Shown: positions 30,301-64,000 of the stretch, piece after piece | Layout: every line of letters begins with the position of its first letter | Position numbering within the stretch: position 1 is the first letter of the stretch | Origin: Raillietiella orientalis | Lineage: Eukaryota | Direction of reading: 5' to 3' | Assembly: GCA_036172245.1 (NCBI GenBank) | Contig: JAYWIR010000036.1 | Coordinates: 1,364,001-1,428,000 of the forward strand | DNA: 64,000 bases | Made by a program: the position numbers and the translations under genes | The notes under the pieces: model-generated | Databases searched by the model: none | What the model was told of the DNA's origin: nothing | Seen by the model: the letters and a program-made list of their open reading frames with translations, nothing else

Positions 30301-33300
30301 AGATTTTCTCAATGTTTTAATTTTTGATTAGCACATATGAAAAATAATGCCACTTTTGCAAATGTGCCCACCTGTAATTTAGCATCAATCGCACTTAAAT
30401 TGACAGAAGTGTAACTGATCGGAAAAAAATTAATTATGTTTACCAATTCATATGTCTGAATAGCCAATTGAACTTTATCATCTCCAATTCCTTTGACCTT
30501 AGAAAACATTTTCTGTATCTCCTTAACTTGTTCAGCTCGTTTTTCTTGATTCGTGTTTTTAGTTTCAAAATGAGTATCAGCAAACTGATCTATCTCTTGA
30601 AGAAGTGTCTGTGCCTTTTCATCCAGATCTCTCATCAATTTAAAATTTCTTTGAAGTTCCATTGGTAAACTTTCAAGACCTTAAAACATTAATAAAATGA
30701 AATGGATCAGTTCATTTCATAAACAAACTTTCACCCAATCTGCGTTCGGATGTTCATGATTTATAATATTATAGTTATCCAATGACTTTGAAATATATAA
30801 CTGATACTCAGAAAGTTCAGAATTAAGGCACTAAAGCATGAGATTTACAAAAAAAACTGCTGGAACTCCCTTAACATGTTGCTTTTTAATTTTTATTTAT
30901 TGTGATATAAATGAGCTTTTATTCTAAACAATGAACATGTTGCCTTATAATTGCTCGCATTTCACTTTTGCCAAGATTTTTTATTTGGGTGCTTAGCCAA
31001 TCCTTTAAGAGGCTGGATGTTTTTTGCATCAGATGCTATTTTTAAAGGTATTCTAATTTTGAAACAAAAAAAAACAGAAACCAAAAATATTGTTGTCTCA
31101 CTACAATCTTTATATAGGAATAATTTTGCGTTCTGAAAATTAATCTACAAATGTTAAGCAAGTTTGTTCATGGTTTTAAGCTTAATTAAACAGCATGGCA
31201 TGAAGCAAGAAAAATCTGCTTCTTTATTTATGCATTTATTGGCAGCATTAATTAAATATCCGACTCCATTGATCAAAAATCCCTTGAATGAAATGAAATA
31301 ATATCTTTGTTTTAAATACTCTTATTTCAATAAAATAAGTAAAAGGTAAGGAAAAGCAAAAGTATTTTTTTTAAAACAAAAAATACATATATATACATAT
31401 ATTTCATTTTTAAATGAAATTTTGGCATTCCCACTGCTTGTTGATAAATGGTCTCAAAGTTCTATGGTCTACCATGTGTGCCATTAATACCAAACACTTC
31501 TCAACACTGCTTTGTGTATTTTAATATGAACAAAAATGGTCACACTCAAATAAACATAATCAAATCTAATTAATGAAATGATATAAAAAATTTAGTGAAT
31601 GGGCTACGATATTTGACATTAGGAATAAAAATGCTTCCTTCTAAACACTCTCATTAATTTATAAAGCCTCTTTAATGGAACTTCCATAACAACTGTACAC
31701 ATAACTGCTTTAAAAATTGGAATTTTATTTGGCCAAATTGATGGTAAATAAGCATTGAACTCAATCAGGAAAGACTGTTAAATATAAAATATGCAAGAAT
31801 CACAATACACAAAAGGACATGTACCTCAGTTGTGTGCATGGTATCTCAAACTTAAATGGTTCACCAAGATAGTTAGATATGTTATTTTTGTGCAAAAAAC
31901 TGAAGTGTGTTTCACATCACTGTCATGGAATAACCAAGAGATCAAATTACAAGTGAATGAATCTTTTTGACACTCCTCATTGACTTGAAATATTTTAGGC
32001 AATTCACTGAGAATGATGTTTGTAGACACCAGAAAGTATCACAAGATGTTCATTTATGTACATTTCATTTAGTTAATCTCGCCAGATTCGTGCAAATGAA
32101 TTTTGCCATTCCATTAATTTTTCTTGTCAATACAGCCCATTCAATCAAGATACTGTATTATACTGGCATTGAAAGTCTACACCTTATTTTTCCCATTTTG
32201 ATAAAACAGGTACATATTAAAGCTTTATTTGTTTTAAGTATAAAGCTCTCGCTGTTTCATGTTTTGCACTAATGCATATAAATCTCATGCAATAAATTTT
32301 GTTTCTAAACACCCCTATCAAATCATAAAATTTCGCAGATACTCCATGAGTTTATAGTTTTCATACATAAAATATATATTTGTAAAACATATTAATAAAA
32401 TTAATGACTACTAAACAATGCTTAGTTAAACAGCAAGTGCCATATAAAAATTGCCACAAATGATATTGGAATGATTTGGAGACCTCAGGTTTTCAAAATA
32501 GTATGCCTCATATTCAGGCTTATTTCCAACCAGTACTAAATACATTCTGCACTTAATTGTTGCAGCAATCCTCATATAGACAGTCTGCCTGAACTTTTCA
32601 TCATGCAGCTATTAATCTGAATTCTCTTTAGTTTCTTTATCAAAACTTCATAAAAATATAAATAAATAAATGTACAAAGTATATATTAAAATCTGCATAA
32701 CAAATCAATGTTTGTCTACCCATCACAAATACACTCCTAGAACATACAATTAAAGGAAATTTGGAGCATTGCCATTCTTGTCAATTTCGCTAAAGCAAAA
32801 AGGTCTCCAGTTTGACCCAAGGACCAACAAGTCAACAACTTTTTGAAAACTCAGCTTACATAGTAATGTTTACATTGAATCTTAACATTCGTTTCTTTTG
32901 ATGAAAAGTTATTTTTTTAAGACCTCCTACATGATAGTCATCACAGAAATCAAGAAAACCACCCAAAGGAAAACAATGATTTGAATAAATATGGTCACAC
33001 ATGGGCAGTCAAAGACACTGGAAACAGAAATTGAGATTCTCTATATTTCAAGAAAGTCCACAACATGAAAAAACAGGAAATAACCCTCTTCATGTTATTT
33101 CAATTCTACTCCTTCTCCTCAAAAAAACTTTTTTCCTCAGCAATAATCAGTATTTTTTTTTTCAATGACAATTACATAAACAAAAACCTAATAAAATTAC
33201 AGTTTTAATTAACCACAATTGCTAACATTAAACAAACTGAAAGAAAGCATGCATGATTTTGCCAGATATCAAAATTTTTTGATATCTGGCAACCAAGTTC

Positions 33301-37660: not shown

Positions 37661-39380
37661 GTGGTCTCCGACAAGGGCTGGAGAATAGAAGAATTCCATT
37701 TTTTTTAGGAATGTAGTTTTGCAGTTCGAAATCTCGATGTCTTTTTTTCTCCTTTAGTGCCATTTGTACTTGTTTTTATTTCTTAATGCTCTGTGTCACA
37801 GAAATAAGCTCTAGTTGGAAGAACACTGAGCATTAGATTCTACTTTTAAATGTGCAAATCCCACTTAGCGTTTTTTCTATACAACTATTACTTTATAATG
37901 AGTTTAATGATACCCTGATTATTTTACAATAATGAAAACCGTCAATGATAACCTTGAAACAAAATTTATGCCACTTAAAAAAAAATATGTTGAGTAGTTT
38001 AAGTGAAAAAAATGAGAGCACTTTACAGTGAATTGAAGAATTTGGACGATAGTGTTATGCAAAATACATAACTTTTAGCTTAAAGTATGCCATTTTGAAC
38101 ATATTATGCTAGTTTGTAGTATAATTTGAAGCTAAAAAGCATTTTCTCTTTATTCAGAAACTGAATCCTTATCTTCCACAGCACCTTGGTTAAAAATCTT
38201 TGAAACTCTGTAATGTCAACACCTGTAGTCAAGTCTTCATCTGTAAACAGTAGGATACCAGATCGAGACTGAAAAATCGAAAAAAAAAAAAAAAAAACTT
38301 CCAAGAACAACCAGCAGTCTCTTTTGCCTCCACTTAATCGTGAGAGGAATAAGAAGGAAAAAAATCGTTTTTTTTTTTTTTAGAAAATCTTTCTATTTGA
38401 AGACAGCGATACTTTAAAAAAAAAGAAAAGAAGGATCGTTATCTTAAATATGGCATTTTGGGCTCATGCGTGTTTATTTAATATCCTCTGTTCTTTTGCG
38501 TTCTCCGTGTCATTCTTTAAATGACGTTATTTAGATCGTTTTTTTTCTTCTTCACTAGTCCTTAAATATTTTCTGTGCACTTTAAACTCCTGCAGTTTCT
38601 GATGATCAACAGGAGCACTGAGTACTTTTTTTTTTTTTTTTTGCATATTATTTGGAGTTTTCTTCCCCATATTATTTGATAACGGGGTTTAGGTTAAACA
38701 TATGCATAAATTGTACAATTCTGAGCATCCAATATCCACGGCATTTCTGCCGTAATGGGATGAGTCGCCATCAACATGCACATCACTCTAGCTGGGTTCC
38801 CATGAAACCCAAAACTGATTTCATGGGTTCCGGTTGATGGGTGGCAGGAAACTAGTTTCTAAATGGAAAAGTGGAAATGACATCATCTAAGAGGAAGTGT
38901 CAACAATGCTCTGGATGCAACGCTCTCTTGAAAACCGCTTTCCTTAAATAAGAATCAGACTCAGAGAAATGCTTCATTAATACAGCATCAACATATTAAA
39001 TGTGAATATTTGAGAACCGGACTTACTTTGCATGCTTAGAAATTCGATTCCTCATATCGATGTTTGCAGTCTACTCGAGAAGTACCTCGAGAAAGTTCGA
39101 AAGGATGCAAGCAGAACAATTCTTGCAATGCTCATTAGCACTAAAACAACGTTGAAGTTTACGGTGAGGCTCATACAAATGTCCCTTGTGTAAGCATCTT
39201 CAAATACCTTCTTTTTTTTCTTTTTCTAATCTATGTTGCTTGGATACTACAATCTTCAACAAGTTACCTAGAATATTCGGCACCTCAAATCTTCCACATA
39301 GATTTTTAGCTTTCATGAAAGGGTTAAAATTTTCCATAAGTAATAGACATCCCACGAAATCGGCTAAAACCTGATCTAGA

Positions 39381-40658
39381 ATGGAGACCGACGAAGCTGA
39401 CAGCTGGCGTTCCTCAAGTGTTTGCTCTGTTTCAAGTCGTCAAGCAGCTGGGGAACAGGCCGCCAAACGATGCAGGAGCAAAACGCCAAACTACGAACAC
39501 AGTCACCGGAAATCCCCTCACAAGATGAATCAACAGTTGCATGTTGGAAGAGAACCATGCTATCAGCCTGCGCCCATCCACATAAGCAGCGCAAGAAACG
39601 ACACGTCCCGGGAAGTTGTGTTAGTTGACCAAAGTGACTCCAGCTTCCCATACTCCTCCGATGCTCTCGAGCAGCTCTTATCGACCCACGGACAGAAGGG
39701 AATGACCGGGGCCATGCTGATGCAAGAGAATGATGAGCTGCACAGGAAAATGGCCGCCATGTTGGCTCAGGAACGATTGGAGGCAGATCGCCTTCACAGG
39801 GAAGAACAAAACCTGATACGCAAAATCACTATCGCCAACCAGTCGAAAATTCATTTAAAAGGTGATATCCAGATGTACGTCAAATGGAACGATGATCTAG
39901 AAAAAGGAATCAAAGATGAAAAAAAAACACTGGCCAATTATAAAAAGGACCTGGAGGAAGAACGTGACAAATATGAATCGTATCGAACACGCTTGGCCGA
40001 CCTGACTGCGGAAATACATGATGAAATAAGATTCAGGACTGCAGGGATAAAAAATCAGAACACTGCATTACACGGGTACACTCTTTCTTGTAAATATTTC
40101 TCTATATTCATTCCTAATATTCTGGCGAAGTGGAGAGCACAGCGTTCACGCAAAATGAGAAGAGTTACAGGATTCTCAAACAGCATGTTCTTAGAATCAT
40201 TTGAACTCCTGGCTCCAGTCATTTTAGTCTTGATGCTATTGCTGCTCTTTTACATGTCGGGGATGTTCAAGATCGATTGCAAGTACAGCATGTCGAAGGT
40301 AATCCCCAAAGCTGAAGAGGATACGAGCAAAGCTAAGCCTGAGGACAAAAAAGGCACAGTGGAGGCCAAGAAGCCAGAAGAAAAGGCAAATTCAAATGAT
40401 CAGAAAGCTGGCGACGTTAAAGCCAAGGCAGAGGCTGGCAAACCCGCGAAACCCAAAGAGGCTAAAAAGCACCAGAAGAGAAAACTACGCGACGACGACG
40501 ACAAACTGGAGTACTTCCAAGAATTAGCTCCATTCATGATAGAGGTGGCTGACGAAACACAGTTCGCCGATCAGGAAGCGGTCGCAAGCGAACAGCAACC
40601 GGAGAGGAGTGTCGATGGGACGACGGAGGATTACACACAGGACACCCATTCAAACTAA
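39381..40658 (+). CDS. Hypothetical coiled-coil protein (425-aa ORF) with a central hydrophobic segment and a K/E/A-rich charged tail
   Basis: Long ATG-initiated ORF. It has a heptad-like region (ENDELHRKMAAMLAQERLEADRL...LANYKKDLEEERDKYESYRTRLADL), then LLAPVILVLMLLLLFYM, then a low-complexity KPEEKA/KAKAEAGK tail. No family recognised. Positions 40076-40288 could be an in-frame intron. Confidence 0.65.
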   Translation: METDEADSWRSSSVCSVSSRQAAGEQAAKRCRSKTPNYEHSHRKSPHKMNQQLHVGREPCYQPAPIHISSARNDTSREVVLVDQSDSSFPYSSDALEQLLSTHGQKGMTGAMLMQENDELHRKMAAMLAQERLEADRLHREEQNLIRKITIANQSKIHLKGDIQMYVKWNDDLEKGIKDEKKTLANYKKDLEEERDKYESYRTRLADLTAEIHDEIRFRTAGIKNQNTALHGYTLSCKYFSIFIPNILAKWRAQRSRKMRRVTGFSNSMFLESFELLAPVILVLMLLLLFYMSGMFKIDCKYSMSKVIPKAEEDTSKAKPEDKKGTVEAKKPEEKANSNDQKAGDVKAKAEAGKPAKPKEAKKHQKRKLRDDDDKLEYFQELAPFMIEVADETQFADQEAVASEQQPERSVDGTTEDYTQDTHSN

Positions 40659-48892: not shown

Positions 48893-50456
48893 ATTTATAA
48901 AAAAGGAAAGCAACCAATTGTATTAAATTAGACAATGAAACGTAAGCACACTATAATACGTCTTCGTTTACATTCACAATTATTTCTGCATTTGTTTCTT
49001 CAGCAACCCAGTTTATTCATCACTACTTTCCCAAGTTTTCAACTGAGATACACAAACAACAGATACTAAGCTGTTCAGCGTTACCATATTCAAGCAAATG
49101 AAAAAGTAAAATTTTTAAAGGAAATCATCTGAATTTAGGATTGCTTTTTAATTGCGGATAAGGAAAAATGCTTGTTTATTAGTACAAATAAGAAATCAAA
49201 TAAGGAAATGTGAAGACAACTTTTTTTGTCTCATTTGTATAACAGCTACCCAGAGAGCTCTATCAGAATGAAGCAATGTGATACATAAATTGATAGACTC
49301 TGAAATAAATATCAGTCATTGATCAAAGATACACAATTCTTCATTAAAATTACAAATAAATCAAGATTGACAGTTTTGTGGAAAACAAATTTAAGGATAA
49401 CTTAGACAACTAAGTCTTATGATTATATATTCACCATAATTCGCATTGTCGTCAAAAGGAAGTAGATCTGCGTATAAAACTATAAGAATTAAGATGAAAG
49501 TTTGACAATGATTTACATAACTTGACATTTAGTGTAGAAAATTCATTTGAAGAAAAGCAACAGAACTTTTTTACAAAATATTTGCGCCGCTAAAGAAAAA
49601 TAAGAGAATGTCAACATGTAAAACCCCAAAATAAGGGGTTCAGTTTCATTCGCTTTCAAAGAAATGTGCATGCACTCGGCAGACTACTTTGCATTCATTC
49701 TGGTTGGGATTTAAAGCCTTTCCCCTTTTTTTTCTTTTCGTGTTTTGCAAAAGACATATTAAAAAAATCATAACATTTTCGTTCTTTGTGAAGTTTTCGA
49801 AACTCCGTCTTCAGACTTTAGCACAATTCTGTATGGTTTCTCCACGAATTTCAATTTCTTAATAAAAATGATTTGTTAGTCTTTACAAGTGCTCTAGATG
49901 CAGGGGTGTATTTGTTTGGAGGCCAGGAACCAAGGAATTTCGGTGTTTCGGATAATCACTAATAAATGCAGCTCTAATAATGCTTGTAATTTCGAAGCAT
50001 TCCGATGGTAAGACTCTAGAAGTCTAGCCAAAGATTACAACATTCAAGTCTGTCCTCTTATGTGATGAGGAAACTGAATAATGATATCCCAGTAGGGCTC
50101 TTTGCAAAATAAATACGTTAAATAAAAAGGACTCACTAAATAAGAGTATCAATAGATTCTACAGAGAATCATATATCAAAAAATGAGGATCATAAAGATC
50201 AATTCAAAAAGAAAGCATTTCGTAAATGTCAGAAAGTGTGCGTGTGCTCGTAAGGACACCATGCACGCGTGGGTGCACGGCTCCCATGTGCAGGTTCCCA
50301 TGATGGCTCCGCTCTCCTGAAACTGCGCTTAGAGGATGATAATTAAAATTTCGAGAATTGGAAATGGAATAAATGGAGTAGCGGCATGGATGAGAAGTTT
50401 TCTTAGGCAAAGCTTTACCAAGAATGACACTCTTATTCTTCAGCTGTAGTTTTATT

Positions 50457-50810
50457 CTAAGAGCTCTTCAAAAACAAAGCGAGGCAGATTACATAAGCAT
50501 AATCAGCAAAAATAGGATCTTCATTAAAAAACTGGGTCATCAAGTAGTTCACAAAGTTGTCCTGAGACCTGTACTTTCGGGACAAGCCTCCCACTGTTGA
50601 CAGACCTTTTTCTATGAACTTATTGGCTATGGTCACACCAACAGCAGGAACTGTATGAATGTCATCCCTTGCTTTCCCTTCCTTTATGAATTTGGCGAAT
50701 TTCTTCGAATTCAACAAAATGGAAAGTCGTTTTGTCACGGCTTCTCGAGGAAGAACACCTTCAAGTTCGGGGTAATTTTTAAATATCCTGGCGACTCGTT
50801 TTCGCGGCAT
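50457..50810 (-). CDS. Divergent BAF-like helix-hairpin-helix protein, copy A (117 aa from MPRKR)
   Basis: LLNSKKFAKFIKEGKARDDIHTVPAVGVTIANKFIEKGLSTVGGL aligns without gaps to BAF [44 protein letters not shown] follows the TAG immediately (50451-50456). The start is chosen by analogy to copy B (MPKR...). The ORF stays open upstream to 51182 and includes another in-frame ATG. Confidence 0.72.
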   Translation of the reverse strand: MPRKRVARIFKNYPELEGVLPREAVTKRLSILLNSKKFAKFIKEGKARDDIHTVPAVGVTIANKFIEKGLSTVGGLSRKYRSQDNFVNYLMTQFFNEDPIFADYAYVICLALFLKSS

Positions 50811-52536
50811 CTCTGCGTCGATCGTTGGTGGATCTGTAAGGACGAGGGTCTTCCGGCTTCCAGGGATGATCGCGCGTGCCCTGCTGGCGGTGGCTGCTGC
50901 CGCGTCTTGGAAGTGAAGGGTCGGAAAGGCGGCTGGAGGAGCCCCGGATGGAAGGGTGAGGAGGAGAAGAAACTCGAACGAAGATGAAGTCGAGAGGTGA
51001 TTGTGGACGTTGCCTTGGTGATACCTTAAGGGGGAGGTCTCGAGGCCAATCGACGCCGCTGCGTCGTCACCGTGGGGTGTGGAACACCCCATAGGACCCT
51101 CCTCACCGGGAAGCGTAGCCGCGGCGCGTCTCGGCAGGTCTCTTTGTGGATCGGCGGGAATCCGTGGCCGGGGAGCTGGCAAGGAAAGGGATTCCGCGCG
51201 GATTCAGCTGCTGAACGCGCCTCTCGCCTGGGGTTCGCTCCAGCTGCGCGCGCAATGGACGACTGCGATTCGAGCGCTGCCTGGCGTGAGCCGAGAAAGG
51301 CCACCTGGAAAGAGACTCCGGTTCTCGCCGACAAGGGGAGGAGGTACCCGTGTATAGGGGTGGCGGAGCAGTTGCACCACAGCTTTTTTATTGAAAAGGT
51401 GTTGCCTTTCTGCGAGCGCGCTCACGGTTCAGCCGCTTTGCACGGGGCGCGCGACCATTCTTCTCCTTCGCGAGGAAGCGTTCTCTGCTTTTGGTCCCAC
51501 AACTTCATCGCCTGGAACACGGCCTCTATGTTGTCCTGGTAGCTCTTGCTTCGGTTGAGAACGTAGTCCCGAAGAATCTCCTCGAAGTCCTGCTTGCTTT
51601 CGTTGCACTCCAGGTACAGGGAGTGCAAGTTGTCCACAGTGAGGTAGGACGCCTGGCGCAGCTGGTCGGCGAAGCTGAAGCCGACACCCGGTATCTTCTG
51701 CACGCCGTCGTACCACTGCACGTTGCTGAGGAAGTCCTGGAACTTCTCGGAGCTCAGCAGTCGGAAGAGCTTAGGGGAGATCTTGGGGGGGAGCGGCGCC
51801 TGCAGCGTGCACTCCAGGTCGTGCAGCACCTTCGATCCCTGCCAGGCTTCTCGCTTGGGCATGCTGGCCAGGCGCGCCGGGCTCAGGGGTCAGGAGGTCT
51901 GGTCGCGCGGGGGAGAGAAGGGGTGAGGCGCAGAAGGCGCCGGTGGGAGAGAGAGAAGGAGTATCGGGACGGGATAGCCGGTGAGCGGGAATTTTTTTTC
52001 ACCTTCCGCTCGAGGGAAGCGGAAATTTGACGATCGATGCTTCCAACAAAACTGGCACGTTTCCTGGGAGACCGTCTGTTTCTTTTCCTCTCTTCCGGAG
52101 GGGAGAGGGGCGAGGCCGCTGATGCCCGCGCGCAAGCCCTCATTGAGAAACGCGCGGCGCGTGAGGCGCGTGCCGACGACGACGATGACGAGGCGAGCAC
52201 GGGCTAGAACCAGAGGCTCGCGTGGCTCCTCGCGGGACACTGGCTGCCGCCTCAAACCCGTGAGGCGGCGTTGGCGCCGTGGCGGCAAGGCTGCGGTCGC
52301 CGCGAAGGTTGGCGGAACGTCGCCGGCACGCGCACGAAACGGATGCCCGCTTGCCGCCGCGCTCGATGCGCAGGCGGATGACAGCGTGTTTCGCGAGACG
52401 CGGACCGGTGTTTCCTGGTCTCCTGGACGAGTCGCTCAGCTCCCTTCCAGCACGATGACGAAGGTCGGACGTCTGCGGAGCGCGGTGGCCGCTCGCCGCC
52501 GTGCGCTGCGGCACCCGCGGGAGCTTCACCAACGCG
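50809..52536. repeat. Left arm of a 1728-bp inverted repeat (palindrome arm)
   Basis: Reverse complement of 61765-63492. Line-by-line manual comparison found 25 substitutions and no indels (~98.6% identity). Confidence 0.97.
51422..51862 (-). CDS. Divergent BAF-like protein, copy B (146 aa, single-exon CDS)
   Basis: LSSEKFQDFLSNVQWYDGVQKIPGVGFSFADQL...FEEILRD...VFQAMKLWD shows the BAF-type S-x-K-x-x-x-F, an HhH PGVG hairpin and a terminal M-x-x-W. AATAAA at 51387-51392 on the minus strand. Confidence 0.82.
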   Translation of the reverse strand: MPKREAWQGSKVLHDLECTLQAPLPPKISPKLFRLLSSEKFQDFLSNVQWYDGVQKIPGVGFSFADQLRQASYLTVDNLHSLYLECNESKQDFEEILRDYVLNRSKSYQDNIEAVFQAMKLWDQKQRTLPREGEEWSRAPCKAAEP

Positions 52537-53255
52537 GCTCTCACGGCTCGACCACGTCTCTCGAAACGCGCAACCACACTTCCCTATGCAAGCCGGTCGG
52601 TGAGCATTGTATCGGTGAACTCAGGGACGCGCGCAGGCCATCGTCTCTTGTGTCTGGACGCGGGTGGAGCTGTGACCGACCCCGCGCGACGTCGCTGTCG
52701 TTCGGTTGTCTTTTCGGCGGCATTGGCGACGACCGGTGCGCGGTCGTGACAACTTACATGCGTGCGAAACGGATCATACGCGACGTTTACTTCTCTTCCA
52801 GTTTAATGGCAAACTTGGGATGCTGCACAGCAATGTGTTGCAGCAACTCCGTCGGGTCCATTTAGGGCATCTGGAAGCAAAGTCCGAAACCGCAGAAGCT
52901 TTGTGGGAGTTTAATTTACGATCCGAAAAAAAAAAAGAGATATAAAACCCGAAAGATGAAGAGGAAAATCGGCGACGTTATAACCTCGGAGTGTCTTTTG
53001 CTTCAAATCTTCGATTTCACCAGAATTTTTTTACGTTGCCTGGATCCCAATGTTGGAGTTGAACTTGATTCGTCACCTTGGATACCATTGAAATTTCACC
53101 CACCCGGCAGAATTTTTCCGAACGTCCTCCTTGCCACACGCATTTCCTCCACCTCGCCAACCTTGCATCATCTTGTTTGGAAGGACCAGTAAGTACGCCG
53201 GAGAAATTCCTGCAGCAAAGGTCCTCTTGCCAGGGGTAAAGAAACAGTCAAAGAG

Positions 53256-53636
53256 ATGTCAGTGAAAGCCATGAAGTCCAGAAAGCAGGAGAGACCCCGG
53301 TCCAAGATGGAAAGGCTGTCGAATTCCGTGAAATTCGAGAAGTTTGTCACCAGCGGAGAACCAACCGACAGCGTACGAGCTGTCCCCGGGATTGGCTACG
53401 TGCTGGCGGAGCACCTGGTCGACAACCAACTGACCACGGTCAGTGACCTGAATGAAGTCTACAAGAAAGCCAGCGAGAACGAGGAGGCCTTCATGAAGTA
53501 CGTGTACGAAGGCATCCTTCAGTCCAACAGGCGCTTCCAGGACAACGTAAAGGTCATCTACTCAGCGCTTAAAGCGTGGAACGGCTCCAGGAGAGGCCAC
53601 CAGAAGGCGTACAAAGCAAGTCAAGTCAAGTGCTAG
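53256..53636 (+). CDS. Divergent BAF-like protein, copy C (126 aa; possibly 211 aa with an upstream exon 52956-53188)
   Basis: SNSVKFEKFVTSGEPTDSVRAVPGIGYVLAEHL...NEEAFMKY...IYSALKAWN is the closest of the six to canonical BAF (S4, K6, F10, V11, V20, GIG-x-VL, L34, E56, F59, L81, W84 equivalents retained). AATAAA at 53648-53653. Confidence 0.85.
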   Translation: MSVKAMKSRKQERPRSKMERLSNSVKFEKFVTSGEPTDSVRAVPGIGYVLAEHLVDNQLTTVSDLNEVYKKASENEEAFMKYVYEGILQSNRRFQDNVKVIYSALKAWNGSRRGHQKAYKASQVKC

Positions 53637-54391
53637 CCAAGTCCCACAATAAAGATGCGGTTTCCATTTGAGACGTTGTCGTTGTGTGCATGCGAGTCAG
53701 GATTGTCTCTAGAATGCACCCTCTACAGCCTCTTCCCAGGGACATCCAGCAAGGGGAAGCGCTACGCTACCTGCCATGGACCATCCTGGAAAGTTCTGGG
53801 CGGTCATCATTTCCAACAGGGAAAGGGACGGGGAACCAGCACGATCGGGAGGAGGGGAAGGGAGGACGGGCGGCGGAGACCCCACTCGGGCGTTTCGGGA
53901 GCCACCGATCCACTTCCGAAGAACAAAAAGAAGGAGAAGGACGGGAATTGCCGTCAGCTCTTCGTGGGGCTCGGAGGGGACGGGGCGGACAGGAACCGGG
54001 GAAGAGGAGGGAGCGTCTTCCTCGTCCTCTGGACCGACCGACCAAACTCTTCCCGGCGGGCGAGGAGCGAAGGCGAGCGCGCGTCTCAGCCGTGCGGACG
54101 CAGCCGGACTGCAGCGCGGCCGACTACTGTTGTCCACTCCCCAAGGGGGCGCTCTCTTAAAGGTTACAAACAACAGCAACGCGCGGCGGCGACGGAGGGG
54201 AGGCGCCGAGGCCATCGGGCCGCCTCTCCTCTGGGCGCGCGCGAGAGCACCGGAGGGTGTTGTCACGGACGGAGAGCGCGCGAGGGGTGGGTGCGCAGCC
54301 GCGCGGCCCGCACCGACCGACCGACCGCCACTCGGACGCGCCTATCGCTCTCCTCCTTCCCTTCCCTTCCCCTCCCCCTTTCCGGCGCCTC

Positions 54392-54424
54392 CATTCCCAT
54401 CGGGTTTCGAACCCGATGGGAATG
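54392..54424. repeat. Perfect 15-bp hairpin in the palindrome spacer
   Basis: cattcccatcgggtt-tcg-aacccgatgggaatg. Confidence 0.9.
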
Positions 54425-57400
54425 CCGACGACGATGACGACTCAAGGGGGCGGTCGTGGCGCCCTCTCCGCTAGCTCCCGCGTAGCGTGCGGGTCGGTGC
54501 CTCCCAGGACCGCAGCCGCCGCGCGCCATCTTCACGTCCCAGCGGCCCGGGGCCCCGCAGGAAGAAGAAGAGGAGGGACAGGGCATTTCCCCCGTGCGCG
54601 TGCCCTCGACCCGCAGTTCCTATCCCCCCCCCCCTCTCGCCCGCAGTCCTACAGCCGCCCTTTCGATGCTCCGCCTTCCCTGCCTCCATCCGGCGCCACG
54701 AACAAGCGCCAGCGAAAATGCGGCGTGTTTCCCCCGCGCGCAGCTTTGCGGACAAAAAAAGAGGGAGGAGAGACGGCGGCGCAGTGACCAGGAGAGGAGC
54801 CAACCGGATCCACGATCGAGGCAGAGGGAAGGTGACCCCGCGGGAGCGCGGGAGATGCCTCTCCGAGTCGCGCGTTCCAGACGGGCGCCACCCTTCTCCG
54901 CGTGCAGCCGGAGCAGAAAGGGAGGACCCCAAGCGACGCATCCTCGCCTGTCCATCGCGGCCTGCGGGCACCGCCAGGCGTGGATGCGCGCTTTCCGTCT
55001 AGCGGCTGCATCACCGGGAAGGGAGGTAGGTCCATCTGGGTGGAGGTGGAGGAGCGCCGTCGGGTCTCCGATCCTCCGTACGAACAGCCATCGTCCACCG
55101 AGGCGCGGACCGACCGTGGAAGCGCCGTGGAGGACAGGCAGGCGGTGCGAGCGGAGGCGCTGCCGAAGGCCTCTCGCGGTCGCCGTCCGAAGCTGCCCGG
55201 GAAAGCGCTGCGTTCGGAAAGCGACCCGGCGCGCCTTTGCCCGAGGCTTCCGAGGCTGCGGAAGCAGGAAGTGCCCCAGCGACGGGCCCGCCGGCAACGG
55301 GGAACGCATCGATGCCCGCCGGATGCCCAGATGAGCTCGCCCTCGCCCGGCCGCGTCCGCACTGGCGACGGCGCTACCAACGAAGCAGCACACTAGGCGA
55401 ACCACGAGCAGTCGCAAGGGTGGAGGAGCGAGCGGATGGTGGACCTCTTCCGGGTCCGTTTCCCGCCCCCAAGCTCCCCGTCTGCTGCCTTCGTCGCATC
55501 CGATCCTCTCCCGCACGCCCACCGGTCCATCCCGTCGCCTCGCCCCACGGGAGAGGCAGACGCCGCCACTCCCCGAAGGGACCGCACCTCAAGGGTGCGC
55601 AGTAGCGGGTCACCGGGAGGCTAACGCAGGACCCGAGAGGCTAACCTTTTGCGCTCCCGACAACGAAAGGGGTGCGTTCGATGCCTTTTCGGCGGGTTCC
55701 AGTCCTATTGTAGGTGCCGCCACACGGTGACACTGCCACTTGGCACGAACGCGACCACCCCTTTGCCCCGCCGCTCGCACGAGGTCGCTTGTCGACTCAT
55801 CCTTGGGCCGAGAAGGCCTTGGAAGGGCTGCAGCGAGATGGTCCAGCGACCAGGAAGATACCCCGAACAGATTTGCGTTGGCAGCGCCGTGATGGGCGTG
55901 GTGTCCCTGCGCCAGGCTGGCGACGCCACTTCCGCGACGGAGGGCCGTCTGCCGCTCTCGCAGCGATCTCCGTGCAATTCGCTCGCCGGCCGGCGGGGGG
56001 CGCTACACCGCGGTGCTGCCGGACGTGGTCCAGGGCAGCACCGAGACCCTCAGCGCGGTGTTTACGCAGGAAGAAGAGCCGCCTTCCAGAGGAGCGGGTC
56101 GCAGATCCGCCAATAGTTCCAGGAGAAGGCAGCTGGGGACAGAAGATGGCGTGCAGTTCGCCCGCCTCTTCGGCGCAAGCCGACGCCATACTGTCGGGAT
56201 GCGACCCAACGTGACCCCGCGGTCCCGCGGGACGTGCTGCGGTCGCCAGCCTCCTAGTCTCCCCTGCTCACGGGGGTCACTTGGGTGGTGCTCGCACGGC
56301 AGCGGTGTGAAGAGGCCTCCCGAGCTGCGCCAGTGACGCGTCGCCGGATTCCTATGATACCATCGTCTTTCCTGGGTGTACCTGGAATCGAGAAACGCGA
56401 GGGGATGGCTGGGTGGCAGCGTCTCAGTAGTCGGCGTGTGGACAGGGATAGAATTTGCTTCGGGGTTTCCTCACCAGCTCTTGCGCTCTTTCGCTCGCTG
56501 GCGCCCTCTGGTTTCTATGCGCTGTCTCCCGTCGGCTTCCGGAAGTCGCCCGAATCTTTGCTAGATGGGGAACCAGAAAGATGCTCTCATGGTCACTCCG
56601 TCTCCCCAGGCAATCGCGACTGCGCTGGTCGCCTCCACTGTCGAGCTGCATCTCTGTTCTCCGTGACGTGTGACCCGCCGACGCGACGAGCACTGTTTTG
56701 TCCCCAGATTCTCGCCTCCAGCGACCTCTCATCTTGGGATGCACTGATGGTCTTCCTTGGAGTGAAGGCGTGCTTCCGCTGCCGTCTACTGCAGAAGAAA
56801 CGATGCTCTCCAAAGATTGAAGCCGTCCGGTGACTGTGCATGCGCGAAGTCTGCTCCTGTGCCCTCCCACCTCCTCCGATAGCACCGCGGAAATCCCAAA
56901 AGCGCTAGCAGCGGTGGGAGTCGTGCCTGCAGATCGAACTGCTGGAGAGCCCCGGCTGCCGAGACGGCGTCCAAGGCTTTCTCGAAGGCGGAAAACAGGG
57001 AGGTGCAGCCGGTCCCGTGCTCTTTTCGTTTCCAGGGAGGCGATGAGGGCCACTGGCGCTCACGGATGCCGGGGTTTCCAAGTTCGCCGCGGTCCCCCGT
57101 TGGACCACCACTCGGTTACGCAGGGACGTGTATTGAAATAAACAAGAAACAACTAACGTTCGAATCAAAGATCGGCCTTGCTAGGCTGCCGGTACGCAGG
57201 CCGTTGAGTTTCACCCTCGGAAGTGGAGGGGAGGGGAGAAACAAAAGGAAAAATAAATATGTAAACACTCTGGAGGGTCATGGTTAGGGATAGCAATCCA
57301 CTGGAAGACGTTCTCTGCATCCTTCCCAGGATGCCGGCAAGTTCTTCCGTATGTTCCCCAGGGGCCATCTGGACGCTATCTTCAGAAAGTGAACTGCAAG

Positions 57401-58383
57401 CTGGATAGCGTTCCTTCCGTTCGGCCCTCTTTCAGCATCGCTCCAGGATGCCACAATCCCACAGAGCTGCCGGGACTGCGGCTGGTGGAAGAGCATCCTG
57501 CACAAGAGGGGTCGAAAAACTTCCCTGGAATTGATCACAAGAGTCCGCTGCGTCTTTCCAGTGAGTTCTCATAGGGACTGGAGTGCAAGACCATGCACGA
57601 GCAGATGCGGGAGAGTGGATTCCAGTTCTCCGCACATGCGACAGTCCGGAATCTCACTCCCTAGTGTCCTGTGATGGAGGCTGGCGCTGCAGGAAAAGAT
57701 CCCAGTGTAACGGAGGAAATGCCGACTCCTGTCATTCCAGGGGGAAAGCGTTGCTGTCCACGAACACCGGGGCCGCTTTGAGTCGGCAGTAAAAACACCG
57801 CCGGGCAGCTCGCCCCTGCGTTGAAGTCCTCGTGGAAGGGTACTTGGGGTCGCAGAGTCGGTCAGTTGGCCCGTAGTCCAAACACTTGTCTTCCTCCTGC
57901 CTGAGATCTCGCAGGAGACCTCCCACCTCTCCAGTTGGCTGCTACCATTCGCTTCTCTCAGGGTGGGCAGCGCCGCGGCCAGAGGGGTGCTCTCCGCCCA
58001 ATCCTGGACTCTCCAGGATCTTCCGCAGCAGGCGCGGATGCCAAGAGCACAGGCAGTTCCACGTCTGTGAGCTGGACTCCTTGATCTTGGTCCAATTGTG
58101 AACCGTTTCTTCTAGCCGGGCGCTAGGGTTGTCAGGGCAGCAGCCGGCCATTTAGCCGCTCTCATGTTCTCATTCGCAATGATGGCTAAACGCTAGAGAA
58201 GGACTCCTCCTCACTCCGGTGGACATGCGGGAGGGAAACACTCAAGTTTAGGTCGTCCCACGGGCTGCAAGGGATGAAATGCCCTTTTCCTTTTGCCTCC
58301 CTCTCCCCAAAATGGAGTCAAGTTCAGGGAGAGTTTATTGCCTCCGAGGTTGCCGACACTCGCTCCCGATGTTTCGCTCTCGT

Positions 58384-59373
58384 TCACTTGTCCTGTCCAT
58401 GGATTCGGTTCCAGTCCTCAAGGGCCTTCGACACGACTTTTAAGTTCTTCTGTAACTGAGCATCGGAATGCAGATAAGAAGCAGAGACCACTTGCTGGAA
58501 CTTCTCTCCGTCTTTGTTGCATCTCAGAAACTCGTCGTACAGGTGCTTCACCCTCGTGATCTCTGCCTCCAGTAGGTAGTGGTACATCCTCGAGTTCACG
58601 CCGGGAATGGCTCTGACCGAGATGCAGAGGTCGTGACAGTTCAGAAATTCTGCGTACAAATCGCTGCTCGAGAGAACGGTGCTCATGTCCGCGACAGCAG
58701 CTAGTCCATTTAAGTGCTCAGCATCATGAGGCAGACTCTGCGACTCCAGAGCAACCGCTTCTACCAGCTCCTTTCCCGCCGAAGATGGCCCATCACGAAA
58801 CGCATCCAATAGAAAAGCGACCGTGGAGGAATCCATTGAGGTATCGCTTTCGGGCCTCGCGAGAAAATCGGAGATCATGGACATTCTCTTTTCCAGCTGG
58901 CAGCACAGGCTAAACCGAAGGATCTCTACGAAGCGCTCCTGGTTGTTAAAGTTTTGAGTGCACACGATCTGTATGTAGTTCCTGATGCTGTTTTCCAGGT
59001 ACGCGAAAAACTGTCTCTGGAGCCGTTCCGGAAGCTGCAGCTTGAGGGCCAGCAGTTCCATCTGGTCAGGATTCAGATGGAACTGCAGTTGCGACGTCTC
59101 CTCGCTGTCTGCGAGGGAAGACCTGGACAGCTTGTTGCCGCTTCTCGGTCGGGGTCGGAATTGAGCGCCGTCGGGACCTTTTCCAGTCCACGCCTGTGAC
59201 TCCTTAGAATATCCTGATCCCTCGGCAGTCGAGGAAGGAATATTGCAAACAAGGAAGAAATTGTTCACTGCTGATTCCACGAACTGATAGAACGCGTCCC
59301 CCTCGTCTTTAAATATGTCCTCATATTGGATGAGCGCACTTTCCCGTGCTGAAGATTTCCTTCTGGCTTGCAT
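58384..59373 (-). CDS. BAF-like domain protein, copy C' (329 aa): unrecognised ~230-aa N-terminal region fused to a C-terminal BAF-like domain
   Basis: First ATG at 59373 in a gccATG context (the ORF track starts at an upstream GTG). The C-terminus reads LSSSDLYAEFLNCHDLCISVRAIPGVNSRMYHYL...FLRCNKDGEKF...NLKVVSKALEDWN. AATAAA at 58334-58339 on the minus strand. Confidence 0.8.
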   Translation of the reverse strand: MQARRKSSARESALIQYEDIFKDEGDAFYQFVESAVNNFFLVCNIPSSTAEGSGYSKESQAWTGKGPDGAQFRPRPRSGNKLSRSSLADSEETSQLQFHLNPDQMELLALKLQLPERLQRQFFAYLENSIRNYIQIVCTQNFNNQERFVEILRFSLCCQLEKRMSMISDFLARPESDTSMDSSTVAFLLDAFRDGPSSAGKELVEAVALESQSLPHDAEHLNGLAAVADMSTVLSSSDLYAEFLNCHDLCISVRAIPGVNSRMYHYLLEAEITRVKHLYDEFLRCNKDGEKFQQVVSASYLHSDAQLQKNLKVVSKALEDWNRIHGQDK

Positions 59374-61764
59374 GGCGCCCCCTGAAGGTCCCAGCAAAAG
59401 TTTTCCCGAGCAGGATATCCTCCTGTCCTTGCGCGGCACTCAGTAACGCTCCCGGGATTCGCCTACTTCTTCTTCCAGACAGGCGGATACAAGCGGAGAG
59501 GAGCGGGAATTCCCTTGCAGCTCGCAGTAGCCTCCTGAAGCCTCCGCTCCCACTGGCACAGAGCACACCTACCGACAAGAAGAAAGAGAAAAACACTCGA
59601 CTTGGAAATTTCAAATTTTCGTCCGAGAAGGTGGTTTCCAGGCAACGCACTCTTTGCGCGCGGCATCTGGCTCCTCCATCCGCTCGCCGCGCTCCGGGAG
59701 GCGTCTCGCTGGCAGGCGGGGACCGCAAGAGTCGTAAGGAGGCGACCGGGAGCACGGAGATACGGGAACCGGACAAAGAATTGGGAAGAAGGAAGGGAGG
59801 AGGGTTCCGAAGCTGGACGTATGGAGTCGAGGAGCACCCGAAGATGCGTCAGTACCATCCTCTCTGCTATGCAAGCTCTGGGGCCAGCTTCCTCTACTCA
59901 CCGTAGGGGATTTTCCGATGTCGTCCCCATCACCTCCTCCACGCGAATCGCACGCAGGCTGCACATGAGCTGCACCTCATCGAGCGCATAACCGTCCTTG
60001 GGCGAGGCATCCAGCAGAACCTCTGCTGTCCACTCCGGGGTAGCGTGGGGTTGAAAGGCTACCAGCCCCGAGGGTTTTCATCACCCTGGATCGGCAACAT
60101 CGAGGCACTGTCTACCCCTCATCGTCATCCCGTCTGCCCGGATCCTCGGCACTTCTCTTGAAGAAATTGATCGCAAGCAAATGGTACCCTGCCCCGAAAA
60201 AGGCCGCGAGCAGTATCGCGGAAGGGCCCATCGATGCACATGAGTTCGCACTCGCGTAATGCGCACCTCACTTTCGCCTCCCGCTGGCTTTCGGGACCTG
60301 CGAAGAGAAGCACGCCGCTCAGCTGAGACCGAGTCTGCATCAGAGAGGCCCCAGCGACCGAGTCGGGAGGGGAGAAGAGATGTCAGGGCGAAGAGCAGTG
60401 AACATCAAGCTCTACGCCTCGGACGAATGGCAAGGCACTCCCACGCAGAGCTGTCTCGAAGATCAGCCGCAAGCGTATCCAATTGTTCCCACCAGCGGCC
60501 ATGTCCACCGCTCTCAGGAAGAGCCGTAGCAGACATGGGCAAAATCCCACCAAAAGCGCGTCCTCGAACGCGATGACCAACATCCGCCCCGGAAAGGACG
60601 CTTCCTCCTCCACGAAGGCTCCTCGTACGCACGCGTCTCCAGGTGTGCAACGGAAACTGCGGCACCCTGGAGTGGAGCACATCCGTCTCAAGACAAGCGC
60701 TCGAATGAAGAACGCGATTCAGCGTCCGCAAGCCGTCGGCTGAACCACTCCACCCGCTGGGAAGTTGAAGACCTGAAGTCCGCCTCGCGGACATGAGGCC
60801 CCTCAGCAGGCGCGACGGCGCACGCGCGAAGCAGCCTCGGACCGGCCAGCGACCACCGGTAAGCACGCGACCGAGCAGAATGCGAGACGGAGGTACCAAC
60901 ACCAATCTCCAGAAATCCCCACCCTGCCGGTCACCCGGTCTTGCACCACGGGCACGCCTCTCACCTGAGCTCATTGCGCAGACAAGGGCTCACCGCGCCA
61001 CGCTTCGGGTGCCGGGCCGGACCATGCGCTGCATACCAACAAACAAAGAGCTTCCGCGCGCACCTGGGAAACCGCAAGCAGAGGCGTCCGAGGCAAAGCC
61101 ACTGAAAGCGAGCCACAGTGGAGAGCGCACGGCGCCACGGAGTGCATCTTCGTAGAAGCCTAAAGCACAAGTGAACAGCCAGCAGCTGGCGCCCCCCTTC
61201 CCGCTCAGCATCTTCGAGTATCTCCCTTGAAGTCCGAGGAGAACCGCTCCTTACAGCCGCGCATGCAAGCGAACCTCGGAAGGAAGCGTCGCTGATGCTT
61301 CCAGGTGGCTGCGAGAAGATCGCGTACTCTCGTTACCGGGTCACCCAGCCGGCGGCTCAGAACAATCGACACCACTCTTTCCGAGTTCCGTTCTTATGGA
61401 AGAGCGACCTCGTGAGCAGTGTCTCGATGTCACGTTCAGGACTCTCTCCAGAAAATGCAAAACGTCGTGCGGATGATTTCCGAAAATCCTCACAAAAGGG
61501 ATCGCCCTCCCTTTCTCCCCTTCACCGGTCGCCAAGGCATCCCTTCCCTACAGCAGAAAAGACCAAAGGCATCAAGGAGTCCTCTCGCGGGCTGATCTCG
61601 CGTCACGAGTCCGCCAGTCGACAACCTTTCGGTGCGAGAGCAGTAGTTTAGGTAGTTAGGTCGCGGCGCTCCGGACAGGTGCTAAAACAAAGCACTGAGC
61701 CGGGCAACCCATGCACCTGGTTCCAGCAGAGCGGACGCGCTCTCGCGCGAGACTCACCTGGCGT

Positions 61765-63492
61765 CGCGTTGGTGGAGCTCCCGCGGATGCCGCAGCGCAC
61801 GGCGGCGAGCGGCCACCGCGCTCCGCAGACGTCCGACCTTCGTCATCGTGCTGGAAGGGAGCTGAGCGACTCGTCCAGGAGACCAGGAAACACCGGTCCG
61901 CGTCTCGCGAAACACGCTGTCATCCGCCTGCGCATCGAGCGCGGCGGCAAGCGGGCATCCGTTTCGTGCGCGTGCCGGCGACGTTCCGCCAACCTTCGCG
62001 GCGACCGCAGCCTTGCCGCCACGGCGCCAACGCCGCCTCACGGGTTTGAGGCGGCAGCCAGTGTCCCGCGAGGAGCCACGCGAGCCTCTGGTTCTAGCAC
62101 GCGCTCGCCTCGTCATCGTCGTCGTCGGCACGCGCCTCGCGCGCCGCGCGTTTGTCGATGAGGGCTTACGCGCGGGCATCAGCGGCCTCGCCCCTCTCCC
62201 CTCCGGAAGAGAGGAAAAGAAACAGACGGTCTCCCAGGAAACGTGCCAGTTTTGTTGGAAGCATCGATCGTCAAATTTCCGCCTCCCTCGAGCGGAAGGT
62301 GAAAAAAAATTCCCGCTCACCGGCTATCCCGTCCCGATACTCCTTCTCTCTCTCCCACCGGCGCCTTCTGCGCCTCACCCCTTCTCTCCCCCGCGCGACC
62401 AGACCTCCTGACCCCTGAACCCGGCGCGCCTGGCCAGCATGCCCAAGCGAGAAGCCTGGCAGGGATCGAAGGTGCTGCACGACCTGGAGTGCACGCTGCA
62501 GGCGCCGCTCCCCCCCAAGATCTCCCCTAAGCTCTTCCGACTGCTGAGCTCCGAGAAGTTCCAGGACTTCCTCAGCAACGTGCAGTGGTACGACGGCCTG
62601 CAGAAGATACCGGGTGTCGGCTTCAGCTTCGCTGACCAGCTGCGCCAGGCGTCCTACCTCACCGTGGACAACTTGCACTCCCTGTACCTGGAGTGCAACG
62701 AAAGCAAGCGGGACTTCGAGGAGATTCTTCGGGACCACGTTCTCAAACGAAGCAAGAGCTACCAGGACAACATAGAGGCCGTGTTCCAGGCGATGAAGTT
62801 GTGGGACCGGAAGAAGAGAATGCTTCCTCGCAAAGGAGAAGAATGGTCGCGCGCCCCGTGCAAAGCGGCTGAACCGTGAGCGCGCTCGCAGAAAGGCAAC
62901 ACCTTTTCAATAAAAAGGCTGTGGTGCAACTGCTCCGCCACCCCTATACACGGGTACCTCCTCCCCTTGTCGGCAAGAACCGGAGTCTCTTTCCAGGTGG
63001 CCTTTCTCGGCTCACGTCAGGTAGCGCTCGAATCGCAGTCGTCCATTGCGCGCGCAGCTGGAGCGAACCCCAGGCGAGAGGCGCGTTCAGCAGCTGAATC
63101 CGCGCGGAATCCCTTTCCTTGCCAGCTCCCCGGCCACGGATTCCCGCCGATCCACAAAGAGACCTGCCGAGACGCGCCGCGGCTACGCTTCCCGGTGAGG
63201 AGGGTCCTATGGGGTGTTCCACACCCCACGGTGACGACGCAGCGGCGTCGATTGGCCTCGAGACCTCCCCCTTAAGGTATCACCAAGGCAACGTCCACAA
63301 TCACCTCTCGACTTCATCTTCGTTCGAGTTTCTTCTCCTCCTCACCCTTCCATCCGGGGCTCCTCCAGCCGCCTTTCCGACCCTTCACTTCCAAGACGCG
63401 GCAGCAGCCACCGCCAGCAGGGCACGCGCGATCATCCCTGGAAGCCGGAAGACCCTCGTCCTTACAGATCCACCAACGATCGACGCAGAGAT
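61765..63492. repeat. Right arm of the 1728-bp inverted repeat
   Basis: Reverse complement of 50809-52536. Confidence 0.97.
62439..62879 (+). CDS. Divergent BAF-like protein, copy B' (146 aa, near-identical to B)
   Basis: 11 nt and 8 aa differences from 51422-51862. AATAAA at 62909-62914. Confidence 0.82.
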   Translation: MPKREAWQGSKVLHDLECTLQAPLPPKISPKLFRLLSSEKFQDFLSNVQWYDGLQKIPGVGFSFADQLRQASYLTVDNLHSLYLECNESKRDFEEILRDHVLKRSKSYQDNIEAVFQAMKLWDRKKRMLPRKGEEWSRAPCKAAEP

Positions 63493-63532
63493 AGGGGAAA
63501 GGAGTACAAAATAGATCATCTGCAAATTCTCC

Positions 63533-63946
63533 ATGCTGAAGGAGACCCTCCCAGAGTCCCTGCCGCTACCGATTCACAGGGTTCTGAGCTCGCGGAAGTT
63601 TGCCCGCTTCGCGAAGAAGGTGCGAAGCGCGGATGTCGTCAAGAGAGCTGCCGGCGTGACCGCCGAGTTGGCTGCACTGCGGAGAGCGGACCACGTATAT
63701 ACCGTAGGGCAGCTGTTCGCGAACTGCATGCTCGACAACTACTTCGTGTTCAACCTTCACGAAGACACGTTTGGAGGACACCCCTATGACAACGCTTACC
63801 TGATCCACCTCGTCATGACTACGTACGCATTCAGGCAACACAACGGCCTTGACACCATGGAACGGACGAAGGGCAAGGGGGGGTCTTCCTCGGTAGACCT
63901 GCAGCCCAACAAAACAAACCTTTCGTCCACTCCACCATCCCGCTGA
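63533..63946 (+). CDS. Highly divergent BAF-like protein, copy A' (137 aa; possibly decaying)
   Basis: VLSSRKFARFAKKVRSADVVKRAAGVTAELAALRRADHVYTVGQL...FVFNL...DNAYLIHL is colinear with copy A. The position matching A's start codon is ATA (63491-63493), followed by an in-frame TAG (63512-63514). No AATAAA in the 54 nt left in the window. Confidence 0.6.
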   Translation: MLKETLPESLPLPIHRVLSSRKFARFAKKVRSADVVKRAAGVTAELAALRRADHVYTVGQLFANCMLDNYFVFNLHEDTFGGHPYDNAYLIHLVMTTYAFRQHNGLDTMERTKGKGGSSSVDLQPNKTNLSSTPPSR

Positions 63947-64000
63947 TTCCATTTCCAGTGGTCGAAGCGAAAGCAACCGCAGCCGGGGTCCCGCGGCAAC

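Follow-up and report, generated by a model that had tools for sequence, protein, structure and literature searches.

The last part of the 64,000-nt window analysed here, a stretch of contig JAYWIR010000036.1 from Raillietiella orientalis, carries six intronless genes whose products share a unit of about 90 amino acids and which are designated A, B, C, C', B' and A' in their order along the forward strand (Table 1). At 50.2 to 64 kb they form a lineage-specific cluster, whose products are highly diverged paralogues of barrier-to-autointegration factor (BAF), a small helix-hairpin-helix (HhH) protein with a SAM-like fold that typically occurs in one or two copies; the cluster is real and it is unusual. 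An earlier sequence-only reading of this DNA had placed six open reading frames (ORFs) at these positions in the orientation - - + / - + +, and our ORF list agrees with it. The common unit of about 90 residues is likewise borne out by alignment of all six products, and contains the motif S-x-K-F-x-x-F, a PG[VI]G-type hairpin, TV-x-x-L and, in four copies, [LM]-x-x-W. A hidden Markov model (HMM) of the six, run against the 766 six-frame ORFs of the window, detected no seventh copy, the next match having an E value of 0.12.

Table 1. Genes of the BAF-like cluster and associated features, with positions in the window
Feature	Position	Strand	Description
Gene A	50457..50810	-	117-aa BAF-like protein from the MPRKR start (ATG at 50810); AT-richer than the other copies
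Inverted repeat, left arm	50809..52536		Gene B with 674 nt of its upstream DNA, and the 5' flank of A
Gene B	51422..51862	-	146-aa BAF-like protein
Gene C	53256..53636	+	126-aa BAF-like protein, divergently transcribed relative to B
Central spacer	53637..58383		GC-rich, up to 69%; no recognisable gene
Gene C'	58384..59373	-	329 aa: orphan N-terminal region of ~235 aa and C-terminal BAF-like domain (~58408-58674)
Inverted repeat, right arm	61765..63492		Partner of 50809-52536
Gene B'	62439..62879	+	146 aa, 94.5% identical to B
Gene A'	63533..63946	+	137-aa ORF, marginal or decayed BAF-like copy

Reading frames are intact in all six copies, and their codon-position composition and poly(A) signals, as judged from the DNA, are typical of real genes. 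GC content at third codon positions (GC3) is 0.63-0.82, compared with 0.37-0.43 at second positions (GC2), in five of the six genes (0.82 and 0.37 in B; 0.74 and 0.43 in A'), and GC3 is 0.44 in A. The signal AATAAA is found eight times on the two strands of 50260-64000 (13.7 kb), and five of these eight occurrences lie 0-44 nt past the stop codons on the correct strand. This agrees with the earlier observation of a signal near the stop of five of the six genes, the distances being 0 (A, where the signal overlaps the stop at 50451-50456), 29 (B), 11 (C), 44 (C') and 29 nt (B'). A' is followed by only 54 nt of the window, which contain no AATAAA.

The remaining long ORFs of the GC-rich block were rejected as genes. 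Pfam returned no family for the 91 ORFs of at least 75 aa at 50.4-64 kb, the six BAF-like genes excepted, and the two long ORFs that were sampled (one in the central spacer, one in the left arm) encode Arg/Ala/Gly-rich products and have flat codon-position GC. The N-terminal part of C' is unlike these spurious ORFs, with a coding-like GC content across the three codon positions (0.56/0.41/0.61) and an ordinary amino-acid composition; it matched no Pfam family, and its first 230 residues had no usable language-model look-alike in the atlas search.

The sequence-only reading took gene A as a 211-aa frame (50457-51092), a version that was rejected because its N-terminal 94 residues are encoded by DNA shared with the flank upstream of A' and have the look of non-coding sequence. 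For the BAF-like protein of A the most likely start is MPRKR, which parallels MPKRE of B. Within the shared DNA, an ORF of about 94 codons is identical in 50811-51092(-) and 63209-63492(+); it runs in frame into A, stops before A' and looks non-coding. A putative splice-acceptor-like sequence (ccttacag/AT) occurs about 25 nt before the ATG of A, just inside the shared upstream DNA.

Homology to BAF and the predicted fold

The proposed BAF identity of these proteins was supported by four approaches: Pfam, comparison of a modelled fold with solved BAF structures, a search of PDB sequences with a family profile and language-model look-alikes all point to BAF. A, B, B', C and C' are homologous to BAF, and A' is a marginal case. 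In Pfam, five of the six copies match SAM_BAF (PF02961) best, and two of them, B (26.7 bits) and C (26.1 bits), pass its gathering cut-off of 25 bits; B' (23.5 bits), C' (18.9 bits; E 0.0022, residues 252-322) and A (14 bits; E 0.074) fall below it. When aligned by hhalign to a family profile built without A and A', A matched over 91 columns with a probability of 94.7% (E 5.6e-8).

AlphaFold2 (AF2) models were made for C and A'. The model of C, with a predicted local distance difference test score (pLDDT) of 78, predicts a complete BAF fold for this protein. Its top eight Foldseek matches are all human BAF, with template-modelling (TM) scores of 0.82-0.84 and a root-mean-square deviation (rmsd) of 2.1-2.3 Å. 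In a VIA-align comparison of the same model with 48,161 chains, BAF (Z 13.4, rmsd 1.6 Å, 88/88 residues) was the sole chain at a Z score of at least 8, and the runner-up reached 6.4. Complex prediction for a homodimer of C (residues 17-112) provided neither support nor counter-evidence.

At the sequence level, a profile (A2) of the six copies and three database relatives, described below, was searched against PDB sequences. Of its eight matches, the best seven were to BAF chains, covering BAF residues 2-80 with E values of 5.5e-6 to 1.2e-5, and the next had an E value of 0.81. The six-sequence profile on its own stayed below significance for BAF in the PDB (E 0.8-1.8), and phmmer searches of the PDB with B or C singly gave no BAF match. 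The sequence-only reading had suggested a check against non-BAF HhH families; the matches to Cdd1/TfoX_C and to the Rad51 N-terminal domain, like that to the thumb of a Y-family polymerase, lie far below those to BAF.

Language-model look-alikes of C were drawn from an atlas, in which 16 of 30 feature matches were BAF clusters with scores of 0.94-0.95. Ranked sixth, with a score of 0.94, was a cluster of 111-aa hypothetical proteins that has no Pfam family, is labelled half viral and is commonest in Oomycota. Unannotated BAF-like proteins may exist outside animals.

The elements that define the unit are kept to different degrees among the copies. The motif S-x-K-F-x-x-F is missing only from C', where SSDLYAEF stands in its place. 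At the hairpin, B, B' and C have PGVG or PGIG, A has PAVG, C' has PGVN and A' has AAGVT.

A phmmer search with C against 1.84 billion representative sequences gave four matches at E <=1e-3, of which three (P0001, P0003 and P0004; 287-379 aa, E 6e-7 to 2e-4) are true relatives; canonical BAFs were not retrieved in this search at the same threshold. SAM_BAF is found in two stretches of P0001, two of P0004 and one of P0003, and the HMM of the six copies finds two domains in each of the three. The fourth match, P0002, lacks a BAF domain and was discarded as a C2H2 zinc-finger repeat protein. In a word-indexed homologue search, B had no match and profile A2 found only P0003, itself a member of the profile. 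No relative was detected among viral contigs searched with C or among metagenome contigs searched with B and with an alignment of P0001 and P0004, and a full-text literature search found no BAF paralogue cluster or BAF palindrome. The description of the family as fast-evolving and lineage-specific fits these three true relatives and an identity to human BAF of 17-20%, as obtained by Foldseek and VIA-align with the model of C. The high conservation and single copy expected of a housekeeping BANF1 orthologue are not seen here, given this low identity and the six clustered copies.

The inverted repeat and the pairing of copies

The cluster contains a single inverted repeat, whose two 1,728-nt arms match at 98.55% identity, with 25 mismatches and no indels, and flank a spacer of 9,228 nt; blastn with a word size of 7 found no DNA similarity outside the arms. 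Each arm comprises B or B', the 674 nt upstream of it and all of the DNA that separates its 3' end from the beginning of A or A'. At its outer limit the repeat reaches the ATG of A on one side and stops 40 nt short of the ATG of A' on the other, so that two coding sequences that are only about 29% alike sit behind near-identical upstream DNA. The sequence-only reading had described an exact mirror image across about 13.5 kb that was held in a palindrome. Gene order and orientation are indeed mirrored, and the 1.7-kb repeat spans B/B' and the upstream flank of A/A'. However, the DNA is mirrored over the arms only, the other gene pairs are without DNA similarity, and the inner spacing is asymmetric, with 1,393 nt from ATG to ATG between B and C and 3,065 nt between C' and B'.

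Protein comparisons gave an uneven picture of the pairs. By BLASTP, B and B' are 94.5% identical, A and A' 29% (30 bits) and C and C' 30% (54 bits, E about 1e-13), with cross-scores of 49 bits for A and C, 67 bits for B and C and 30 bits for A' and B. A maximum-likelihood (ML) tree was built from 12 domains, one from each of the six copies and two from each of P0001, P0003 and P0004, all rows being retained. The predicted pairing is certain for B and B' (support 99/99) and has moderate support for A and A' (78/82), and C is weakly joined to the A/A'/B/B' group. The third predicted pair, C and C', was not recovered, but an approximately unbiased (AU) test did not reject a C+C' clade (p 0.235), nor did it reject a single clade of all six copies (p 0.30). 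The motifs that had been proposed as private to each pair are visible in the alignment: KFA[KR]F, TVGxL, DxAYxIxL and loss of the terminal Trp in A and A', and SVRA[VI]PG and N[VL]KV[IV]xxALxxWN in C and C'.

We favour an origin in two layers, in which an older inverted duplication set the mirrored order and a recent conversion or copying event homogenised the B segment and the flank upstream of A and A', and on the sequence evidence we give it a probability of roughly 55%. In the first layer, an A-B(-C) unit would have been duplicated in inverted orientation, after which the proteins would have diverged to about 27-30% identity. In the second, a 1.7-kb segment holding B and the promoter side of A/A', now 98.6% identical in both arms, would have been transferred through gene conversion between the arms or as a fresh inverted copy. 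A consequence of this homogenising event would be that A and A' now have common upstream DNA.

The mirror could instead be largely a coincidence, if no old palindrome ever existed and a dispersed BAF-like cluster (A, C, C', A' and one B) underwent one recent inverted duplication of 1.7 kb. The outer ends of the arms are difficult to reconcile with this, because they abut the start codons of BAF-like genes on both sides and in the right orientation, which a random insertion would rarely achieve; the sister relationship of A and A', the private motifs of both A/A' and C/C' and the failure to reject a C+C' clade also speak against it. A single recent duplication would nevertheless be in keeping with sharp ends, an absence of indels, an even divergence of 1.45% and the lack of DNA similarity past the arms, as well as with the asymmetric spacing, the separation of C' from C in the tree and the BLASTP best partners, which are B for C (rather than C') and C for A. 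We regard this account as a genuine possibility that falls well short of an even chance.

A number of observations weigh against the two-layer origin or against a set of six working BAF paralogues. The ends of the repeat are razor-sharp with no gradient of similarity, and hence a single recent copy event fits better than long-running conversion. If B/B' is taken as a recent copy, mirrored order and orientation alone would arise by chance in about 1 in 8 cases by our estimate. The ML tree places C' with the P0001 and P0004 domains (80/82), away from C, and the best BLASTP partner of A is not A'. The locus is seen only as far as 54 nt past A', where the window stops, and the case for transcription comes from sequence signals. 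The identity to human BAF is as low as reported above, and the DNA binding and dimerisation discussed below are inferred. A' has no Pfam match; its hhalign alignment to the family is weak (E 0.021, 48 N-terminal columns, probability 2.3%), and its AF2 model (pLDDT 61) finds BAF as its best Foldseek match at a weak score (E 0.54, TM 0.66), so that A' may be a pseudogene or a decaying copy. Finally, the 8 nonsynonymous and 3 synonymous differences between B and B' (Nei-Gojobori) correspond to a ratio of nonsynonymous to synonymous rates (dN/dS) of 0.73, which is indistinguishable from neutrality; counted by codon, 8 differences are nonsynonymous and 2 synonymous.

The near-unrecognisable A' and the dN/dS of B/B' would also be in keeping with a locus that lacks any working 'system', most copies being untranscribed ORFs or pseudogenes in decay within GC-rich DNA that readily yields ORFs. 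Many long spurious ORFs do occur in the GC-rich DNA here, and the ORF of B is richer in arm differences than its flanks (11 in 441 nt vs 14 in 1,287 nt; Fisher p 0.039), a weak hint that the differences between B and B' may reflect relaxed or diversifying selection. Against such general decay stand the six intact frames, the excess of GC3 far above GC2 in five of them, the matching of five of eight AATAAA signals to stops, which is unlikely by chance, and the confidently predicted BAF fold of C. We consider it very improbable that the cluster as a whole is defunct.

Genomic setting

The window is a compositional mosaic in which AT-rich stretches alternate with GC-richer blocks. The AT-rich stretches (about 6-35 kb and 44-50 kb; GC 29-37%) hold the exons of conserved, intron-rich, multi-exon genes and are depleted of CpG (observed/expected 0.15-0.83, mostly <0.65), with TpG/CpA in excess; in the AT-rich genes that flank the cluster the CpG ratio is 0.15-0.6. 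At about 50.2 kb the composition steps sharply from 29-31% to 53-69% GC, and from there to the end of the window CpG shows no depletion (observed/expected 0.87-1.14). Smaller GC-richer, CpG-undepleted blocks (observed/expected about 0.9-1.1) are present at 1-6, 36-38 and 40-44 kb. The pattern looks like mosaic germline methylation, in which the bodies of housekeeping genes would be methylated beside unmethylated blocks.

The sharpness of the step at 50.2 kb raises the question of whether the GC-rich block came from outside, as an integrated virus, a mobile element or a misassembled contaminant, and brought its own BAF mimics, and the atlas cluster labelled half viral is a lead, and a lead only, in this direction. 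The other GC-richer blocks within the window indicate that the GC-rich state is a trait of this genome and no sign of foreign DNA. A Pfam search of the 91 ORFs of the block gave no family and hence no integrase, capsid, polymerase or transposase, the block has no terminal repeats besides the internal inverted repeat, and the viral contigs contained no relative. A foreign origin is the most improbable of the explanations considered here.

Elsewhere in the window, Rfam and tRNA scans gave no match. An exon at 30312-30680(-) encodes the N-terminal histone-binding domain of an ING protein (Pfam E 6.7e-20) and is about 50-64% identical to proteins of arthropods, molluscs and annelids, as would suit an invertebrate animal; the best matches are arthropod ING4/5 proteins at about 60%. 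The top score against this exon belongs to P0005, a partial ING-like database protein, because its N-terminal ING domain is tandemly duplicated. Coiled-coil exons on the minus strand at 6547-6912, 7860-8114 and 13321-13614 are associated with weak Pfam matches (GAS, E 5e-4; APG6_N, E 9e-4); the exon at 6547-6912 has no Pfam match of its own and may resemble BRE1/RNF20-type ligases. A 427-codon open frame at 39375-40655(+), with a GC content of 39-49%, encodes a Lys/Glu-rich, coiled-coil-like protein of ordinary amino-acid composition for which Pfam gave no family, and may be a further intronless orphan gene.

Possible roles and comparison with known systems

In the usual view, BAF is a single, invariant housekeeping gene with functions in reassembling the nuclear envelope, mending its ruptures and countering foreign DNA. 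Its N-terminal Ser/Lys ('TSQKHRDF') and glycine hairpin ('AGIG') serve regulation and DNA contact. B, B' and C appear to keep equivalents of both, since their N-terminal Ser-x-Lys and PG[VI]G hairpin align with the N-terminal Ser/Lys and HhH hairpin of BAF. By analogy, these three proteins most likely bind double-stranded DNA (dsDNA) without sequence specificity and would bridge or compact DNA as dimers. The hairpins or tails of A, of C' and above all of A' are altered, and these copies may act as modulating partners, in the way that BAF-L does with BAF in mammals, or may be decaying.

The CpG-rich, unmethylated-looking setting and the expansion from one to six copies lead us to guess at a specialised and possibly germline role rather than a housekeeping one, and a role in the germline or against foreign DNA is at most possible. 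The functions that the sequence-only reading proposed, in germline or sperm chromatin packaging or in conflict with viruses or selfish elements, reach further than the present evidence, as does its exact mirror. A more ambitious interpretation is that an animal lineage turned a single ultra-conserved BAF into a rapidly diversifying family, with the C' fusion, a pair kept alike by the inverted repeat and A and A' behind the same promoter, for a conflict-driven task in packaging or guarding germline DNA or in trapping viral or transposon DNA; we offer this as a speculation that is unlikely to hold. If it were true, the cluster would indicate specialised BAF roles in chromatin compaction or defence outside mammals. 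Six copies that keep the fold at 17-30% identity would also constitute a natural experiment in which BAF surfaces (for DNA, dimer, LEM and lamin binding) can change, and one promoter region placed before two very different coding sequences would, if confirmed, be a neat case for comparing conversion boundaries with selection.

Among known genomic arrangements, ampliconic palindromes, such as those of sex chromosomes, have near-identical inverted arms between which gene conversion takes place. The cluster resembles them in having such arms, which contain a member of a multi-copy family and flank a unique spacer. It differs in that the arms measure only 1.7 kb at 98.55% identity and that conversion here is a proposal drawn from the sequence. 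The database relatives P0001, P0003 and P0004 share BAF-like domains with the cluster, and C' groups with the domains of P0001 and P0004; unlike the single-domain genes described here, they are tandem two-domain proteins with acidic tails.

BAF/BANF1 itself (PF02961; PDB 1ci4 and 9j8m chain K) has the same domain size as these copies and the complete fold recovered for the model of C (Z 13.4), and the N-terminal S-x-K-[FH]-x-x-F and the G-[IV]-G hairpin occupy equivalent places. The copies differ from it in being extended by about 17-37 residues at the N terminus and by tails at the C terminus, in being six and clustered, and in the fusion of C' to a 235-aa orphan region. The BAF review PMC13443024 describes BAF as a homodimer that binds dsDNA via its HhH motif and gives the similarity of BAF-L to BAF as 53%; this review and PMC8877947, on BAF-L in spermiogenesis, report that BAF-L forms heterodimers with BAF, has the weaker DNA binding of the two, is testis-enriched and influences histone-to-protamine exchange. 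BAF-L/BANF2 is a single gene and much closer to BAF than are the copies in this cluster. It is, as they are, a diverged BAF paralogue, and it provides a precedent for copies that modulate rather than duplicate the function of the parent protein.

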